Below, piece by piece: positions 24,802 through 40,548 of a stretch of DNA of 64,000 nucleotides. The notes under the pieces were generated by a model. That model searched no databases, was not told where the DNA came from, and worked only from the letters and a program-made list of their open reading frames with translations. The position numbers were made by a program, and so were the translations under genes. Each line of letters starts with the position of its first letter. Within the stretch, counting starts at the first letter, position 1. Origin of the DNA: a bacterium (GTDB lineage: Bacteria > Patescibacteriota > Minisyncoccia > Phycocordibacterales > DATDWN01); the NCBI GenBank assembly GCA_037134875.1, contig JBAXLH010000001.1:106646-170645 (forward strand), given 5' to 3'.

Positions 24802-25395
24802 CTACTTTGAGAGAGATTGAATATCTGCGCGAGCCTTTGTGATATCGTCAGTGACCTTCTGCTCATCTGCACGTAACTTAGTAGTTGTTACTTCTTTGAT
24901 CTGCCAACTAACTGCGTCGCCAGCCCAGAGACAGATATCGCTTGCCGCGTTATTGATATCCTCATTCCAATTACCGAGCGCATCGGGTGAAGTGCCGGAG
25001 TATAAGTTATCGGCTTCTTGATAGGCACTCATTGCGTTAGTGCCCGGATCATTCTTGAGGCAGGTATTGGTGCGGAATGAACCGAGCTGGCTTGCGGCCG
25101 AACTTGGATCGTTAAGCGCTTTCAGACCTGCGTTCGCATCTGCGTACTGCGTTGTGCCGAGCACAGTCTTGGCAGAGCTTAATAACGACACGTAGTGGTC
25201 GGTGCTTGCCGAAAGAATTGCAGCAACCTTTTGCTTATCTGGAGCAGACGATGTCGCGACTACTACAGGATTTTGCACGGGCGCACTTTCCTGTGCCTGC
25301 TTGATAGGCTGCGGCGTATTTAGACCAATTATAAGTAACAAAACAAAACCGAGAACAACTACTCCGACAACGGAGTAGAGAACTTTTTTAGCCAT
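24802..25395 (-). CDS. hypothetical secreted/membrane-anchored protein
   Basis: N-terminal TM helix VLYSVVGVVVLGFVLLLIIGL. GC-rich island cargo. Confidence 0.45.
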   Translation of the reverse strand: MAKKVLYSVVGVVVLGFVLLLIIGLNTPQPIKQAQESAPVQNPVVVATSSAPDKQKVAAILSASTDHYVSLLSSAKTVLGTTQYADANAGLKALNDPSSAASQLGSFRTNTCLKNDPGTNAMSAYQEADNLYSGTSPDALGNWNEDINNAASDICLWAGDAVSWQIKEVTTTKLRADEQKVTDDITKARADIQSLSK

Positions 25396-25560
25396 AAAAT
25401 CTAGCGGGATTTTAGATGGTGGGAACCCTCAGGTAATCAAAAGGCTCCTCGCCATTGCGATGAGAACCTTTCGGCCCCCACCCATACCGGTTTCCCGATA
25501 TGACCCGCTAGAGTGACTCTGACGAGGAGTCCTTTGATCTCTAGCGGGATTTGCAACCAT
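25396..25560 (-). promoter_or_regulatory. candidate structured 5' leader with triplicated 9-nt motif (mutually exclusive helices)
   Basis: tctagcggg at 25400-25408 and 25540-25548; its complement cccgctaga at 25505-25513. GC-rich nested helices between (ggtggg/cccacc, gggaacc/ggtttccc). The proximal motif abuts the start codon at 25395. Confidence 0.3.
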
Positions 25561-25698
25561 ATCCTAAGAATTTGACTTCCTAGGGGTTAGGTCGGCTTAT
25601 ATTCAATTGTGCAAGTACATGATAGCAGAAATTGCTATCGTTTGACCACCTTAGCTTAGCTTTGAGAGCTTGCAAAGTAGGTTATCTACTCCTCAATT

Positions 25699-31233: not shown

Positions 31234-32979
31234 TTAATACTTCAATTCCTTTAGATACCCTTCGACCTTTGTATCAATTGCCGTACGCTCCTTTTCGAGA
31301 GTAGCTAACTCCTTGCGTACAGCAGACACATCAATAATTTCCTCTTTATCACCGTTCTCAATGTAGCGGCGAACGTTGAGGTTGTACTCATTCGTTTCTA
31401 TCTCCTTCAGGTCAACGACGCGGGCATAACCATCAATATCCTTAAAACCATCGTAAGTTTTAACAATTTTCTGAATGTCCTGATAACGGAGCGAATTCTG
31501 ATTCTTACCCTCAGAGAAGTCCTTCTCGGCATCTACGATCAACACTTTACCTTTGTGACCTCCCGCCTTGTTCTTGTTGAAAATGATAATGGCCGCTGGA
31601 ATGCCCGTGCCGTAGAAGAGCTTTGACGGAAGTGCAATCACAGCTTCGATGAGGTCATTCTTAAGTATTTGTTCCCGAATACGGCCTTCGGAACCACCTC
31701 GGAAGAGGACACCGTGCGGGAGCACAATACCGGCACGGCCATTAGAGTTCATCGACTTGATGATGTGGAGCACAAAGGCGTAGTCAGCGTTTTTGTTTGG
31801 TGGCAGTTCGTACCCGTCGATGCGACCGTATTTATCGGACTTGAACATCTCGTACTCCCAGTCGTTGATTGAGTAGGGTGGGTTTGCAACGCAAATATCA
31901 AATGTCTTGAGACTACCGTTTGGGTTCAAAAACTGCGGGTTCGCGAGTGTGTCGCCCCGCTGAATGTCGGCGCTATCAAGTCCGTGGAGAAACATGTTGA
32001 TCTTGGCGATCGCATAAGTGCCAATATTAATCTCCTGGCCATAAAGATAGAGCGTGCGCGCAATCTGCTCGCCCTCTTTCTCTTTCAGATGATGAAAAGC
32101 CTCCAAAAGGAATCCGCCTGAGCCGACCGTGGGGTCGTAAATATGATCTTTCTTGTGTGGCTTAAGTATCTGTATGATGACGCGTTCAACTTCACGCGGT
32201 GTATAAAACTCACCGCCTTTCTTTCCGGCGTCAGCCGCAAACTGTTTGATGAGGTATTCGTACGCATCGCCAAGGACATCGGAGTTGATGTATGTGTCGC
32301 CAAAGTTGTATTGAGAGAAGTGGTTGATGAGGCGCTGAGTCGTTTCGTTCGGGAAGCGGTCCTTGTTGGCAAAGTCGAGGTCATCAAAAATCCTGTCGAG
32401 CTTCGGACTATTGGCGTTGGCAAGCTTTTCAAAAATCTCATTGAGTTTCTTGCCGATGTTTTCTGCTTTTTCCTCAACAACCGACCAACGACACTCCTTC
32501 GGCACCTGAAAGCGATGGTTGTAGTCGGCGCGAGCGATCGTTTCGTCTTTGAACTCTTCCATTACCTTCGCGTACTCTTCATCCCAGACGTCGCTGATGC
32601 GTTTGAAAAAGAGAAGGCCAAAGATGTACTTCTTGTAGTCAGAACTGTCGATTTTGCCGCGGAGAATATCCGCACTCTTCCAGAGGAACTGCTCGAGCTG
32701 TGGAAGAGTGAGCTTGCTACCCATCTTGTCGACTATTGCTCGTATATCTTCAGGGCGATATTTACGATCCCCGCGTTTACCGGCACGCATGGGTACTAAA
32801 ATGCCCTCCTTTTCCCAGTTACGGAGGGTGTCTGGATGGATATTAAAGATTTCAGCGACCTGTCCTATTGAAAGGAGGTCGGGCATTTCTTTGAGTTTTG
32901 CTTGTATATCTTTGCGCATATTGTTAAGTACTATCCTATCGCGGGCTAAATATAATGTCAAGCGTTCATAGGTTATCAT
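31234..32979 (-). CDS. hsdM: Type I R-M methyltransferase subunit with N-terminal MerR/excisionase-type HTH extension
   Basis: N6-adenine methyltransferase motifs (NPPY: VANPPYS) and HsdM N-domain. The first ~75 aa (LLSIGQVAEIFNIHPDTLRNWEKEGILVP...KYRPEDI) match a MerR/HTH_17-like domain. Confidence 0.85.
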   Translation of the reverse strand: MITYERLTLYLARDRIVLNNMRKDIQAKLKEMPDLLSIGQVAEIFNIHPDTLRNWEKEGILVPMRAGKRGDRKYRPEDIRAIVDKMGSKLTLPQLEQFLWKSADILRGKIDSSDYKKYIFGLLFFKRISDVWDEEYAKVMEEFKDETIARADYNHRFQVPKECRWSVVEEKAENIGKKLNEIFEKLANANSPKLDRIFDDLDFANKDRFPNETTQRLINHFSQYNFGDTYINSDVLGDAYEYLIKQFAADAGKKGGEFYTPREVERVIIQILKPHKKDHIYDPTVGSGGFLLEAFHHLKEKEGEQIARTLYLYGQEINIGTYAIAKINMFLHGLDSADIQRGDTLANPQFLNPNGSLKTFDICVANPPYSINDWEYEMFKSDKYGRIDGYELPPNKNADYAFVLHIIKSMNSNGRAGIVLPHGVLFRGGSEGRIREQILKNDLIEAVIALPSKLFYGTGIPAAIIIFNKNKAGGHKGKVLIVDAEKDFSEGKNQNSLRYQDIQKIVKTYDGFKDIDGYARVVDLKEIETNEYNLNVRRYIENGDKEEIIDVSAVRKELATLEKERTAIDTKVEGYLKELKY

Positions 32980-33067
32980 AGGTCTAAACCTTAGCTTGCT
33001 ATGTAAAATAAGGGTAATTTGGCTATCAACAGGTGTCCTGGACTCCCTAGAGCCTTTACGTCATTGA

Positions 33068-34360
33068 TTGATGTATATGGAAACAAAGCAATTGGAGGCC
33101 CTCCGGTACTGCCTCTACGCACGCAAAAGTACCGAAGCAGAGGATAAACAGGCCCTTTCAATAGAGTCGCAGGTAAAGGAGATGCAAGTGCTCGCCGAGC
33201 GGGACGGGCTCCATATCGTAGAGATAAAGCGAGAGTCACACTCCTCCAAGGAGGTAGGCCAGCGGCCGGTATATAACCAGATGCTCGAGGACCTACGCTC
33301 ACAGAAGTTCAATGCAATACTCACATGGGCTCCGGATCGGTTGAGCCGCAATGCCGGAGACTTGGGGTCGGTCGTAGACCTCATGGACCAGAAGCTGCTG
33401 CATGAGATACGCACCTACGGGCAGAAGTTTACCAACAACCCGAATGAGAAGTTTTTGCTGATGATACTCGGGAGCCAAGCGAAACTTGAGAACGATAACA
33501 AGGCGGTGAATGTTAAGCGTGGATTGCGCACACGATGCGAGATGGGGTGGAGGCCCGGCGTTGCACCAACCGGATACTTAAACGAAAAGCACGTTGATAA
33601 AAAGTGCCAATGTAGGGTTGATCCAAAGCGCGGACCGGTCATCAAACAGATGTTTGAAAAAGTAGCCAATGAACAGTGGAGTGGGCGCAAGCTATATCGC
33701 TGGTTGAGAGAAATCGACTTCAAGACGCATCGCGGCAAGCCGTTGGTGCTGGCGAATGTGTACATAATTTTGCGAAACCCTTTTTATTACGGCGACTTTG
33801 AATACCCGGTCGGTGGAGGCAAGTGGTACACAGGCAAGCACACGCCAATCATTGATAAGGAGTTGTATACAAAAGTGCAAATGACACTGAACGCGAACTT
33901 TATACCCAAAACTGAGAGTAAAGAGTTTGCCTTTACCAAGCTCATACGATGCGGACACTGCGGCTCGGGCATATCCGCAGATGAGAAGTTCAAGAAGTTA
34001 AAAGACGGCGGTGTAAACAGGCACGTGTACTACTTCTGCACCAAGGCTCGGAATATAGACTGCAAGAATCCGGCCATAAATGAGCCGGGTCTGATCGAGG
34101 AGCTTATAGGTCTCATGGATAAGGTCAACATGGACGAACTAGGCATACGAACCCGGATAGAGGATGAAATAAAACGGTTTAACAAATTTAGGTCAGGCGT
34201 ACTTGGACACAAGCAAGACAAAATAGAGATCGACGTAGATGTAAGAAATTACACCAAGTACCTATTGAGAGAAGGGACGCTTATAGAGAAGCGCGAACTG
34301 CTCGGATGCCTTCAAAGCAAACTATTTCTGAATGACAAAAAAATCAGAATGGATAATTAA
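33068..34360 (+). CDS. large serine recombinase (integrase) 1
   Basis: Resolvase catalytic domain (YCLYARKSTEAED...SIESQ), recombinase domain and zinc ribbon (CGHCGS...YYFC). Confidence 0.85.
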   Translation: MMYMETKQLEALRYCLYARKSTEAEDKQALSIESQVKEMQVLAERDGLHIVEIKRESHSSKEVGQRPVYNQMLEDLRSQKFNAILTWAPDRLSRNAGDLGSVVDLMDQKLLHEIRTYGQKFTNNPNEKFLLMILGSQAKLENDNKAVNVKRGLRTRCEMGWRPGVAPTGYLNEKHVDKKCQCRVDPKRGPVIKQMFEKVANEQWSGRKLYRWLREIDFKTHRGKPLVLANVYIILRNPFYYGDFEYPVGGGKWYTGKHTPIIDKELYTKVQMTLNANFIPKTESKEFAFTKLIRCGHCGSGISADEKFKKLKDGGVNRHVYYFCTKARNIDCKNPAINEPGLIEELIGLMDKVNMDELGIRTRIEDEIKRFNKFRSGVLGHKQDKIEIDVDVRNYTKYLLREGTLIEKRELLGCLQSKLFLNDKKIRMDN

Positions 34361-36688: not shown

Positions 36689-37447
36689 TTATTTTTTGGA
36701 AACATAATCAATTATCTTGTCCCAATCGAGGTTATCTTTTGTATAAAAAAGGTCAATGACATCTTTTGTCATTTCGTTGATTTTCTTTACATAAAGTTGT
36801 TTAAAACTATCGTCTCGTTTCTTAGCTTCCTTATCCAGTGGTTGAATGATTTTTTTATACAATTCGTTATCGCCAGAGATAAGTTCCCAAAAAGCTTGTC
36901 CGCAAATTTTGTAATAACTAAGGTCGGGGTCTTTATTCACCTTATGTGGAACATTGTCTCGTCCATAAATACAGCCGTTTACAGAAACAATACTATTTTT
37001 ATTGAGTTCGGCACGAAGTAACTTTTTAGCAATTTTCAAGTTTCTTTTCAATGTATTTACTTGGTCAGAATTTCCCCAGTTTGGTCCGGATTTAATACCA
37101 ACGATATAGGTTTTTTCATCTCGATCAAAAATTAAATCAACGCTACGATATTTCCCTTCCTCCGCTTTTTTGCCCTTAAATACTTCGTGGCAAACATGGA
37201 TAGCCAGATTTTCCATCAAATCGCCGAAAATTGTTTCCTCTTGTGATGACAAAAAAGCGTCAAGAATACTTTTTGCCAAATCTCCTGCGGTCTCGATGTT
37301 CTTGGCCTTAAATAAGTAAGGATTTTTTCGTTTTGAAATATAAGAAAGTTTTGCCGATTCAAGTCGAGCAAGCCGTATTTCATAAAATGGTTTTATAACA
37401 TCAGAAGCGATAAAGGTATTTAGTTTTTCGTAGTTTAGTTTTTTCAT
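36689..37447 (-). CDS. putative Type II restriction endonuclease (PD-(D/E)xK)
   Basis: Position immediately downstream of C-protein and methyltransferase. Candidate D...D/ExK (SVDLIFDRDEKTYIVGIK). Confidence 0.5.
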   Translation of the reverse strand: MKKLNYEKLNTFIASDVIKPFYEIRLARLESAKLSYISKRKNPYLFKAKNIETAGDLAKSILDAFLSSQEETIFGDLMENLAIHVCHEVFKGKKAEEGKYRSVDLIFDRDEKTYIVGIKSGPNWGNSDQVNTLKRNLKIAKKLLRAELNKNSIVSVNGCIYGRDNVPHKVNKDPDLSYYKICGQAFWELISGDNELYKKIIQPLDKEAKKRDDSFKQLYVKKINEMTKDVIDLFYTKDNLDWDKIIDYVSKK

Positions 37448-37448
37448 A

Positions 37449-38315
37449 TTATTTCGTTTGCTCGTTAATATTTTCGACAGCCAGTTTGTGATATTCCTCC
37501 TGTATTTCAATACCTATTGAATTACGGTCAAGCTGAAAAGCGGCAATAGAAGTCGTGCCGGAACCCAAAAATGGGTCTAGAACGACGTCTCCGGGTTTTG
37601 TAAAAAGTTTAATAAACCAACTCGGTAGTTCTTTGGGAAAGACTGCACTATGTTTTTTGTTGGAACTTTCGGTCGCCATTGAAAGTACATTTGTAGGATA
37701 AGCTAAATCGCGACCTACCCAATTTGATACATTTTTTCCAAAACCGCTACCAACTTTTGAGTTATCTCGTTGCTTATCAGTTTCGCTAAGATTTTTCAAA
37801 CGAGTTTTTGCCCAATCTCCCATGGGGACTCTTACCTCATCTTGATACATATTAAAATCTTTTGATTTATTGAATTGCAAAAGTCGTTCCCAAGAATCAC
37901 GAAAACGGTTAGGCCACTTGCCCGGAAAGCAATTTTTTTTGTGCCAAATAAATTCTTCTGTCCAAAGCCAGCCCTGTTTTCGCATTGCGATAATTAGCTC
38001 CATGACATAGGTATGACGCTCACCATTTGCAACTTTTTCTTTAATATTCAAAACGAACGTTCCTTTTGGATGTAAAACTCGTAATAATTCTGCCGTCATA
38101 GGCAAAAACCATTCAACATATTTATCAGGACTAATTCCGCCGTAAGTGCTTTTCCTTTGGTCTGCGTAAGGTGGTGATGTGACGATAAGATCGACGGAAT
38201 TTTCTGGCAAACTTTTTAAAACATCAAGACAGTCGCCAAGAATAACATCCGCTTTTACTTTGGCTTTTGTCTTTGCATTAAACAAGTCAATTTTTTCTAT
38301 AGTGTTAATTGTCAT
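37449..38315 (-). CDS. Type II DNA methyltransferase (N4-C/N6-A, beta class)
   Basis: SPPY motif (LIVTSPPYAD) and motif I FLGSGTT. Confidence 0.85.
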   Translation of the reverse strand: MTINTIEKIDLFNAKTKAKVKADVILGDCLDVLKSLPENSVDLIVTSPPYADQRKSTYGGISPDKYVEWFLPMTAELLRVLHPKGTFVLNIKEKVANGERHTYVMELIIAMRKQGWLWTEEFIWHKKNCFPGKWPNRFRDSWERLLQFNKSKDFNMYQDEVRVPMGDWAKTRLKNLSETDKQRDNSKVGSGFGKNVSNWVGRDLAYPTNVLSMATESSNKKHSAVFPKELPSWFIKLFTKPGDVVLDPFLGSGTTSIAAFQLDRNSIGIEIQEEYHKLAVENINEQTK

Positions 38316-38998: not shown

Positions 38999-40537
38999 AT
39001 GAACAAATTCTTTCTGTATGCGAGAAAATCTACCGACGAGCCAGATCGTCAGATTTTGAGTATTGAATCGCAGATTGACGAGTTGAAAGAATTTGCAAAG
39101 CGAGAGCAGTTGGAAATTGTTGAAACTTTTATTGAATCACAAACCGCCAAAGAGCCGGGGCGACCTATTTTCAACAATATGCTCTCGCTTATAGAAAAAG
39201 GTAAAGCGTCAGGAATTTTAGCTTGGCACCCCGATAGATTGGCGAGAAATAGTATTGATGGTGGAAAGATAATCTATCTGTGCGACCTTGGTAAAATTAA
39301 AGAGCTAAAATTCCCGACGTTTTGGTTCGACGCTACGCCACAAGGTAAGTTTATGTTAAATATTGCTTTTGGGCAGAGCAAATACTATGTAGATAATCTT
39401 TCAGAGAATGTGAAGCGCGGACTTCGACAAAAAGTAAGACGAGGCGAACAGAGCGGTCAAGCTCCGACGGGATATGTGAATGATAAGTTGAACAAGAAAA
39501 TTATTCCCGATGTGGAAAGATTTCGCCTCGTCAGGAAAATGTTCGAAGTCTACGCCACGGGAAATTATTCTCTGAAAGATACAAGGAATTTGCTCGCCCA
39601 AAAGGGCTTGGTGTCTAAAAATGGTAAAGTTCTCACTGTTTCAAACACGCAAATGATATTGAAAAATCCGTTCTACTATGGAATGTTTTTCTTTAACAAA
39701 GAACTTTACCAAGGAAAGCACGAGCCAGCGATTTCAAAGAAACTTTTTGATAAATGCGCTGAAGTATCGGCGAGGAATGCTCACCCGATGAAGCGAGGAA
39801 TTAACAAACATATCTTTCGCGGAATACTTTCGTGTGCAGAATGCGGATGTGGTATCACTAGCGAAGTGCAAAAGGGTCATACCTACTATCGTTGCACCAA
39901 AAAGAAAGGTGTCTGCACACAAAAATATATCCGCGAAGAATTCCTCGCCGAACAAGCTAATGATATTATCAAAAAAGTTTCTTTGCCGTCCGAGTGGAAA
40001 GAATTCATGCTCGCTGAACTCGAAAAGGAACAAGCGAGCAGTTTCCACTCTGACGCCCTTTTCGTTCAAAATCTGAAAAATCAAATCAAAAGTGTTGAGG
40101 AGACGCTAGACAAGCTCCTTGACGCTCATTTGGATAGCACAATTACGAGCGAGGAGTATATCGGCAAGAAGCAAAAGCTCCTCAACCAAAAAATTGATTT
40201 TTCAGAGAAATTGAAAGATTTTGAACGAAAAGGCAATCGCTGGCTCGAACTTTCTCGTCAATTCATTTTAGACAGTAACCAAGCCATAATTATCGCTTCC
40301 GAAGAAAATCTCGAAGCCAAAAGAGATTTTCTTAAAAAGATTGGCTCGAACCCCCGCCTCGCGTCCCGCTCGCTTCTTTTGGATTTCAAAAACCCTTGGC
40401 GAATTCTGGCGGAAACCCCAGTCGCGTCGCTTTGCGACGCTCCGAATTTTGGCGAAAAAACGAATTCCGAAACTTGGCTGCGGGACTTGGATTCGAACCA
40501 AGATGACACGATTCAGAGTCGCGTATCCTACCATTAG
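38999..40537 (+). CDS. large serine recombinase (integrase) 2; last ~60 codons read through repeat B' and antisense tRNA-Gln
   Basis: Resolvase domain (FLYARKSTDEPDRQILSIESQ), recombinase domain and zinc ribbon (CAECGCG...YYRC). Confidence 0.8.
   Translation: MNKFFLYARKSTDEPDRQILSIESQIDELKEFAKREQLEIVETFIESQTAKEPGRPIFNNMLSLIEKGKASGILAWHPDRLARNSIDGGKIIYLCDLGKIKELKFPTFWFDATPQGKFMLNIAFGQSKYYVDNLSENVKRGLRQKVRRGEQSGQAPTGYVNDKLNKKIIPDVERFRLVRKMFEVYATGNYSLKDTRNLLAQKGLVSKNGKVLTVSNTQMILKNPFYYGMFFFNKELYQGKHEPAISKKLFDKCAEVSARNAHPMKRGINKHIFRGILSCAECGCGITSEVQKGHTYYRCTKKKGVCTQKYIREEFLAEQANDIIKKVSLPSEWKEFMLAELEKEQASSFHSDALFVQNLKNQIKSVEETLDKLLDAHLDSTITSEEYIGKKQKLLNQKIDFSEKLKDFERKGNRWLELSRQFILDSNQAIIIASEENLEAKRDFLKKIGSNPRLASRSLLLDFKNPWRILAETPVASLCDAPNFGEKTNSETWLRDLDSNQDDTIQSRVSYH
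40349..40480. repeat. inverted repeat B' (right copy), ends at tRNA-Gln CCA terminus
   Basis: Reverse complement of 38783-38914. Confidence 0.8.
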
Positions 40538-40548
40538 ATGATCCCGCA
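40475..40548 (-). tRNA. tRNA-Gln (anticodon CUG)
   Basis: Cloverleaf read by hand. Acceptor UGCGGGA/UCCCGCA, D-arm with GG, anticodon stem CGCGA/UCGUG, loop CUCUGAA, T-arm CUUGG-UUCGAAU-CCAAG. CCA encoded. Confidence 0.8.

Follow-up and report, generated by a model that had tools for sequence, protein, structure and literature searches.

A LOOT RNA upstream of a membrane-anchored protein gene in Patescibacteriota and its co-varying alternative helices

The locus and its RNA

The window analysed here is a 64-kb stretch (64,000 nucleotides, nt) of contig JBAXLH010000001.1 from a bacterium of the Patescibacteriota. Its DNA derives from lake samples, JGI 3300021605 and ENA ERZ27300010 among them. 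On its minus strand a gene coding for a protein of 197 amino acids (aa) is preceded by a structured RNA of the LOOT family, and this RNA, with its relation to the gene that follows it, is the subject of the present study. A cmscan search placed the Rfam LOOT RNA (RF03000) at 25462-25593 on the minus strand. The score is 70.5 bits where the gathering score is 46.4, and the match takes in the whole model (positions 1-121 of 121). No other Rfam family matched between 25200 and 25900 at E <= 1. LOOT belongs to the orphan RNA families, and knowledge of it comes from metagenomes only. Rfam gives its type as 'Gene; sRNA', and the Rfam 14 paper (PMC7779021) lists it as 'metagenomic-based RNA', the source being the Weinberg/Breaker metagenome motif set. 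No function of LOOT was found in the literature searched, in which it is mentioned in databases and methods, as a metagenome-derived motif and as a test case for covariation. The RNA of the window is an additional member of this known family, and no account of the features described below was found in the same literature. The first-pass annotation of this DNA had seen no likeness to a known riboswitch class and had proposed an Infernal/Rfam run. That run recovers a bona fide LOOT RNA, though LOOT is no validated riboswitch class. The annotation had also set the start of the element about 35 nt too late, since the structured RNA begins at 25593 and is preceded by a promoter-like site. The features of the locus, in the order of the minus-strand transcript, are as follows.

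25619-25648 (-): promoter-like site from a consensus scan, with putative function; TGGTCA, 18-nt spacer and TG-extended TATCAT (25619-25624)
25462-25593 (-): LOOT core according to Rfam (P1, P2, P3 and P4), from cmscan
25555-25593 (-): hairpin P1, with internal loop CCUAAC (25586-25591) / UAUGG (25557-25561)
25539-25548 (-): c1, the distal copy, CCCGCUAGAG, with CCCGCTAGA at 25540-25548; 5' strand of helix P2a
25521-25538 (-): A, apical part of P2, AUCAAAGGACUCCUCGUC; forms the small apical stem P2b or pairs with A'
25504-25513 (-): c2, the central segment, CUCUAGCGGG; shared partner of c1 and c3 (the 9-mer at 25504-25512 on the plus strand reads UCUAGCGGG on the minus transcript)
25483-25502 (-): P3, 8-bp stem with GAAA cap; 98.6% paired, 5 pairs with compensatory changes
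25462-25479 (-): P4, 6-7-bp stem with GAAA cap
25436-25453 (-): A', 3' partner of A, GGCGAGGAGCCUUUUGAU; outside the Rfam model, ends in a U-rich tract
25422-25448 (-): P5, tentative in the window and read by eye; GGAGCC (25443-25448) with GGUUCC (25422-25427), the 5' strand overlapping A'
25400-25411 (-): c3, the start-codon-proximal copy, AAUCCCGCUAGA, with CCCGCTAGA at 25400-25408; can replace c1 as partner of c2
24802-25395 (-): downstream gene, 197 aa, N-terminal membrane anchor; presumed regulated gene

The 9-mer CCCGCTAGA occurs exactly three times in the 64 kb of the window and nowhere else in it. By chance 0.22 copies would be expected and none of 100 shuffles had three or more, which rules out the triple as a chance product. 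It had been noticed before that the motif lies twice on the minus transcript with its complement once between them, and this description is exact. The direct repeat is actually 12 nt long (AATCCCGCTAGA at 25540-25551 and 25400-25411). Four nt separate the end of c3 from the ATG at 25395, and the copy spans -13 to -5 relative to the A; the earlier figure of -15 to -6 is near enough. Where a single GAAA-capped stem had been described between the central and the proximal copy, there are two, P3 and P4. The 221-nt RNA of the window folds with -91.1 kcal/mol (z = -6.4 against shuffles).

Relatives were collected with a pattern on the P2-P3-P4 junction, which fixed GGGTC and both GAAA loops and left P2a, A, A' and c3 unconstrained. 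It matched one viral contig, at least 119 metagenome loci and 52 genome loci. After filtering, 120 non-redundant LOOT-like cores remained among the matches listed, and the family counts rest on these. All 19 relatives that were re-tested pass the Rfam threshold, with 68-90 bits. The true hits in genome bins are nearly all from Patescibacteria of the candidate phyla radiation (Saccharibacteria, Paceibacterota, Woese-, Doudna-, Kaiser- and Nomurabacteria and others). There was one LOOT match per locus in 152 of 153 loci, and no similarity to deposited phage genomes was found. Individual loci are designated below by L and a number.

The window shares with RF03000 a full-length match, the P1 internal loop (CCUAA with xAUGG), a long P2 and two GAAA-capped hairpins. 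The loop in P1 has the conserved form CCUAA ... (G/A)(C/U)AUGG; over the 120 relatives it reads CCUAA(C/A/G) with (U/C)AUGG, and the flanking position co-varies (C-U in 54, A-C in 51, G-U in 7). We take this loop to match the 11-nt consensus of the GAAA-tetraloop receptor. A GAAA tetraloop with an 11-nt receptor is found in the c-di-GMP-I riboswitch, in group I and group II introns and in RNase P. LOOT has no sequence or Rfam similarity to these RNAs; what it has in common with them is a CCUAAG/UAUGG-like loop together with conserved GAAA loops, which suggests a docked, compact fold. The receptor-like loop in P1 and the two GAAA loops thus argue for a compact tertiary structure of the core, as far as can be judged from the sequence.

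The segments c1 and c2 are the two strands of the long hairpin P2 in the Rfam model. In the window P2a has 10 bp, and P2 is followed by the two GAAA-capped hairpins. The apical P2 pairs of the model are non-canonical in the window, where the apex pairs with A' instead. It should be noted here that the Rfam model ends at 25462, so that c3 and all sequence 3' of this position lie outside it. The window and most relatives continue into A', P5, often c3, and then an open reading frame (ORF). The Rfam model therefore appears to cover only the 5' two-thirds of the functional RNA.

Helices that co-vary within and beyond the Rfam model

Of 116 leaders, 58 have the third copy. The distance from the end of its 10-nt core to the ATG is 1-5 nt in 52 of 56, and the copy never overlaps the ATG. 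It was observed that c3 varies together with c1 and c2 in a set of at least 11 distinct helix sequences; among the types that have a c3 to match are CCCGCTAGAG, CCCGCTACAGG, CCCACTACAGG, CCCAACCACG, CCCATCCCTG, CCCGCTAAAG, CCCGGTTGA, CCCGACCAAG and CCCACCACA. Pairing of c1, c2 and c3 was counted in a MAFFT alignment of 32 diverse leaders. For c2:c3, 87.8% of the cells are paired and 7 of 10 pairs have changed on both sides, with a score of 0.438 against 0.172 for shuffled data (none of 500 shuffles was as good). For c1:c2, 86.8% are paired and 7 of 10 pairs show compensatory changes, with a score of 0.425. That c2 could pair with either copy had been proposed from the window, and the covariation shows that both options have been kept by evolution. 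Duplexes between a leader's own c2 and the 22 nt before its ATG are far stronger than those with the c2 of other types; none of 20000 permutations reaches the observed mean. The energy of the own duplex is -10 kcal/mol or lower in 10 of 29 helix types. In leaders whose c1 and c3 are not the same, pairing of c3 with c2 is usually retained (L022, L033, L034, L056 and L072).

The same is seen in front of orthologues of the downstream gene. The 197-aa protein matched no Pfam or PHROG family and has 36 homologues. Five of them were looked up (83-46% identity) and all have LOOT upstream, so the conservation for which the first-pass annotation wanted such homologues checked is present; a homologue of 42% identity is without LOOT. 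In four of the five orthologous loci all three copies have switched together, from CCCGCTAGAG / CTCTAGCGGG / CCCGCTAGA to CCTAGTAGAG / CTCTACTAGG / CCTAGTAGA, and the switched loci keep the same TTTT-ATG spacing.

A comparison of the two folds had also been proposed. When c1:c2 or c2:c3 was forced, the folds differed by 1.5 +/- 5.9 kcal/mol over the 58 leaders with c3, which makes them near-isoenergetic over the family and neither one strongly favoured. Two mutually exclusive pairings, both maintained in evolution and close in energy, are what a riboswitch would be expected to have.

A further helix joins the apex of P2 to the sequence beyond the Rfam model. A:A' comprises 18 pairs; 93% of the cells are paired, and 15 of the 18 pairs have changed in a compensatory manner, the first such change having been seen in L009. 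Pair swaps include CG in 88 and GC in 28, AU in 76 and GC in 36, and UG in 80, UA in 20 and CG in 14. The helix contains many G.U pairs and so makes sense only for this strand as RNA. For an RNA that stops just 3' of A', free energy minimisation yields the A:A' fold in 59 of 120 relatives, the window among them. The competitor, P2b, has weaker support: of its 4 pairs, which are 80.6% paired, one co-varies. A:A' crosses both c1:c2 and c2:c3 and is a pseudoknot or a third alternative; if it were to form alongside c1:c2, it would have linkers of no more than 0-1 nt and 7 nt. P5 is clearer in relatives than in the window, and its arms co-vary by eye (CUGGCGG/CCGCCAG, CUGACGG/CCGUCAG and UGUGGCGG/CCGCCACA).

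The leader of L027 has no c3. In it (about +60 to +98 after the GGGTC landmark) the 3' strand of P5, CCCCUCCAGC, is complementary to A' (GCUGGCGGGG) and also to a genuine Shine-Dalgarno (SD) sequence, UUGGAGGGA, which lies 4 nt before the AUG. This has the look of another kind of expression platform built on the same core, and it is the one clear example among the members without c3.

P2a itself apparently changes by exchange of the whole block, and at a faster pace than the other helices. L015 and L085 on the one hand and L018 on the other have near-identical cores, with the same P1, P3 and P4, and recombinases that are 94% identical; their P2a arms are wholly different (CCCAGTCAGGA/TCCTGACTGGG vs CCCGCTACAGG/CCTGTAGCGGG). 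L018 has a matching c3, and L015 and L019 have none. In the antisense RNAs of plasmid copy control, short pairing segments act as specificity determinants and diversify fast. The likeness to LOOT, offered as an analogy only, is that P2a arms and c3 change as a block between near-identical elements. The difference is that in LOOT the pairing takes place within one transcript and no replication function is in evidence.

Beyond the triple no further copies of the motif were found in 118 of 120 loci, which excludes distant extra copies as island boundaries. One of the other two loci, L052, has a fourth exact copy of the 10-mer at -8295 from the landmark, in the orientation of c2 and about 36 nt from the start of a serine recombinase gene. 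In the other, L153, the ATG is apparently mis-assigned, and the extra copy would be the real c3.

A candidate switch on translation initiation and its alternatives

LOOT lies on the same strand as the following gene and 5' of it, as a riboswitch does. In about 90% of 116 relatives the GGGTC landmark is followed, at a distance of 78-125 nt, by an ATG that opens an ORF of at least 40 aa. No canonical terminator was found between LOOT and the ORF, either in the window or in 104 of 105 relatives with a nearby ORF. On the 5' side, the TGCTATCAT box of the promoter-like site is kept in L009 and in L182-L186, and -10-like hexamers are enriched 26-33 nt 5' of CCTAA across the family. In many loci a conserved ACAATT(G/T)AAT-like stretch lies about 5-15 nt 5' of P1 (25597-25606 in the window), between the -10 box and P1; it probably represents the first transcribed nucleotides.

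The start regions of this genome are unusual. An SD-like 4-mer is found upstream in only 4 of the 53 long ORFs of the window, and many genes have a TG-extended -10 box (TGCTATAAT, TGGTATACT, TGGTATCAT or TGGTAGAAT) ending 6-9 nt before the ATG. This suggests that the genes of the window are mostly transcribed as leaderless mRNAs, which would make a structured leader of about 230 nt exceptional in this genome. An SD near the ATG was found in 2% of LOOT leaders of the c3 type and in 12% of the others. As the organism barely uses SD sequences, the mechanism cannot be classical SD masking; since a missing SD is normal here, the SD-like GGAG in A' needs no special role either.

Taken together, we lean, by a modest measure, to the reading that 25396-25593 on the minus strand is a cis-acting 5' leader of the mRNA of the 197-aa gene, transcribed from its own promoter at about 25619-25648 and serving as a conformational switch on translation initiation. 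The covariation of c3 in particular points to a switch that works in cis on the gene downstream, more than to a small RNA standing by itself. In state I, P1, P2a with P2b, P3, P4 and P5 would be formed; c1 and c2 would be paired, c3 single-stranded and the AUG region open. In state II, c2 would pair with c3, probably together with A:A' unzipping the apex of P2, to give a relaxed H-type pseudoknot. A G+C-rich helix of 9-10 bp at -13 to -5 should then block access of the ribosome. What it would mask is the unstructured approach to the AUG, as SD sequences are hardly used. The choice between the states would presumably be set by whatever stabilises or destabilises the LOOT core, be it a ligand, a protein or the kinetics of co-transcriptional folding. 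From this architecture we infer that the switch acts on translation, in which direction it does so, and that there is a trigger.

In translational riboswitch platforms, such as the thiamine pyrophosphate riboswitch of thiM and those of the SAM-II type, a strand of the aptamer chooses between a partner in the aptamer and the ribosome-binding region. LOOT leaders resemble them in having a structured, conserved 5' domain, a shared strand with two exclusive partners, one of them by the start codon, and near-isoenergetic alternatives, as well as different 3' platforms on the same core within one family. They differ from them as follows: the genes that follow are functionally unrelated, the masked start region has no SD, and an extra long helix crosses both alternatives.

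Several points weigh against this switch. The 116 downstream proteins fall into 75 unrelated BLAST clusters, unlike the coherent regulon of a metabolite riboswitch, so that functionally shared regulated genes are not seen. They include membrane-anchored proteins, DNA methylases and zinc-ribbon proteins, and 61 of the 116 have an N-terminal hydrophobic segment. Such diversity makes a metabolite-specific regulon less likely and speaks for a general signal, or else for a switch worked by kinetics or by a protein. Half of the family is without c3, and a different expression platform would be required in these members. For the window's own sequence the balance is tipped by 6.8 kcal/mol towards c1:c2. 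The crossing of A:A' with both alternatives implies a pseudoknot in the real architecture, which makes the scheme of two states a simplification. P2a is nearly pure Watson-Crick (429 of 440 pairs, with 6 G.U vs 4 A.C), and this helix alone is therefore no proof of selection at the RNA level over the DNA level. The promoter and the 5' end of the leader are predictions, and the pattern-fished sample covers only part of the LOOT family.

Other kinds of control that the first-pass annotation had considered fare differently. It had proposed riboswitch, attenuator or thermosensor control of translation initiation; the exclusive helices sharing c2 stand, and the thermosensor and an attenuator of the leader-peptide kind do not. 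An RNA thermometer is rejected on the strength of c2:c3, which is a perfect G+C-rich helix of 9-10 bp with about -17 to -23 kcal/mol in the helix type of the window. The only ORF overlapping the element (25429-25560, 43 aa) loses its frame in L009 through 1-nt indels, and this removes both a leader-peptide attenuator and a protein-coding explanation.

The best of the remaining explanations, though we hold it unlikely, is that LOOT is a free-standing small RNA, either a structural or protein-binding RNA of a mobile element or a regulator acting in trans, with c3 as its target site on the neighbouring mRNA or on mRNAs that belong to other copies of the element. The Rfam type points in this direction, as do the promoter-like site of its own and the compact core with a tetraloop-receptor motif and two GAAA loops. 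The block replacement of P2a between L015 and L018 would fit a determinant of pairing specificity. In addition, a terminator follows LOOT in 5 of 15 loci without a nearby ORF (L035, L070, L118, L143 and L170), and some LOOTs may stand alone. In three of these (L118, L143 and L170), about +60 to +170 after the landmark, a mini-ORF of nine codons (MSINIIKER) is followed by a clean intrinsic terminator, AAAACACCGCGGAGGUGUUUU, and then by the next gene; this arrangement is possibly a stand-alone RNA. Against a free RNA, the window and nearly all leaders lack a terminator before the ORF, the spacing between c3, in cis, and the ATG is fixed, no more than one LOOT is seen per locus, and the conserved 3' extension with A' and P5 runs on into the ORF.

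A somewhat smaller chance is given to c2:c3 as a processing signal. The helix would close a cloverleaf-like four-way junction around P3, P4 and P5, and cleavage by an RNase just 3' of c3 would yield a leaderless or near-leaderless mRNA, its first nucleotide lying at the AUG or 1-5 nt ahead of it. The prevalence of genes without SD, 49 of 53 in the window, together with the -10 boxes close to the ATG, indicates that the leaderless form is apparently preferred. It agrees with this that c3 ends shortly before the ATG without ever overlapping it and that the predicted structures of state II are four-way junctions. The proposal is purely inferential, however: no feature points to a known RNase substrate, a tRNA-like gene was not found there by ARAGORN, the nucleotides from c3 to the AUG show no conservation, and half of the family has no c3.

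It is improbable, in our judgement, that the element controls transcription, with P2 as the anti-terminator of an unusual terminator that is made up of A:A' and the U-rich tract (CCUUUUGAUU; in the family, consensus GAGCUUUUUGUUU) and whose 'loop' is branched. A:A' is strongly conserved, a U-rich run follows A' throughout the family, and the truncated RNA prefers this fold in the window and in about half of the relatives, as given above. The U's, on the other side, are themselves partners of an A-rich stretch in the helix and share in its covariation, the enclosed 'loop' has about 67 nt and is unlike known intrinsic terminators, a terminator scan was negative there, and c3 is left unexplained.

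Less probable still is a function of c1, c2 and c3 as DNA, with the inverted and direct repeat being sites for a linked serine recombinase or a repressor, perhaps a recombination junction before the gene. The linkage of a large serine recombinase in 42 of 66 loci, often divergent and about 200 nt away, would favour it, along with the almost perfect Watson-Crick pairing of P2a and the wide differences among the downstream genes. The sequence of the c sites is uncoupled from the similarity of the recombinases, which excludes them as recombinase half-sites: recombinases of 94% and 85% identity go with different c sequences and recombinases of 29% identity with the same one. There are no further motif copies in 118 of 120 loci and no arrays, c1:c2 lies inside an RNA with strand-specific G.U pairs and GNRA loops, and the dyad axis of c1:c2 differs from that of the inner repeat.

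Three known kinds of element do not fit. An integron-like site (attI/attC) would go with the tyrosine integrase IntI and arrays, and here the linked enzyme is a serine recombinase, with one LOOT per locus and no further motif copies. A bridge RNA or seekRNA of the IS110 type is rejected with no DEDD recombinase of IS110/IS1111 among the neighbours and with repeats that are paired together and not placed in open loops. For a tRNA-like or transfer-messenger-RNA-like element, ARAGORN finds nothing at 25396-25593 and there is no Rfam tRNA match.

Mobile surroundings and possible meaning of the leader

The large serine recombinase is the commonest neighbour of LOOT. Its homologues were found in 42 of the 66 LOOT loci with at least 2 kb upstream and in none of 21 pattern hits that are not LOOT. 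The gene is usually divergent, with its start about 200 nt from P1, or other genes lie between. The linkage is context and no demonstrated part of a mechanism. The recombinase of the window has the following position.

33068-34360 (+): large serine recombinase (Resolvase, Recombinase and Zn-ribbon), from Pfam and PHROG matches

It is separated from LOOT by a 7.3-kb operon of a type I restriction-modification (R-M) system. In the closest relatives LOOT, the 197-aa gene and a gene for 69 aa are syntenic, and it is the stretch upstream of LOOT that varies in gene content. There the window has the type I R-M operon; a mer-like operon, a YibE_F gene or a gene for a PKD-domain protein takes this place at other loci. 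The label of island cargo that had been given to the downstream gene is hence misleading, for in close relatives it is this gene that stays with the RNA. Downstream of LOOT, a ParB-N/DNA-methylase gene and terminase-small-subunit-like genes are usually found in convergent orientation.

The sequence AAGCTAAGGT occurs in two exact copies, 25648-25657 and 32988-32997 (both minus), which bracket the hsdM-hsdS-hsdR-ygjP operon; a longer core reads GCAAGCT..AAGGT. One copy lies just upstream of the LOOT promoter and the other 9 nt before the ATG of hsdM, beside the recombinase gene. As a possible cassette-insertion site it was compared with other loci: 12 have the sequence, always at -145 from the GGGTC landmark and some 55 nt upstream of P1, and a second copy does not recur consistently in them. 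Taken alone it is not significant (4 matches with at most one mismatch vs 3.2 expected). A promoter or operator element and the scar of an insertion are both conceivable.

The part of the window from 25.7 to 38.3 kb is dense in R-M genes. HsdM (31234-32979, minus) also carries an N-terminal helix-turn-helix of the MerR type, and a restriction enzyme of the EcoO109I type lies with an N6_N4 methylase at 36689-38315 (minus). A second large serine recombinase ORF at 38999-40537 (plus, 512 aa) overlaps with its 3' end a tRNA-Gln(CTG) at 40475-40548 (minus) by about 63 nt, which may mark an integration junction or the boundary of an island.

The block replacement of P2a, the strong linkage of the recombinase and the extreme diversity of the genes that follow led us to one more proposal. 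The P2a arms and c3 might form a fast-evolving 'address', in which c2 would be the guide that recognises a matching nucleic-acid segment at the 5' edge of a gene, and LOOT and the neighbouring serine recombinase would together, for instance, couple, capture or exchange genes in mobile elements of Patescibacteria. It is a long shot, to which we give very little probability.

If the leader is the conformational switch described above, LOOT would be no free small RNA; it would be the sensor part of a cis-regulatory leader of about 200 nt with a pseudoknotted extension. Candidate RNA switches that are specific to the candidate phyla radiation are few, and it would then be one of them. These organisms have tiny genomes and few known regulators, and in the present window their genes are mostly leaderless or without SD. 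The link to elements with a serine recombinase and the diverse, often membrane-anchored products of the genes that follow hint at a general signal that could be controlling accessory genes. For such a switch the co-varying triple of c1, c2 and c3 would offer a direct handle for mutational tests.

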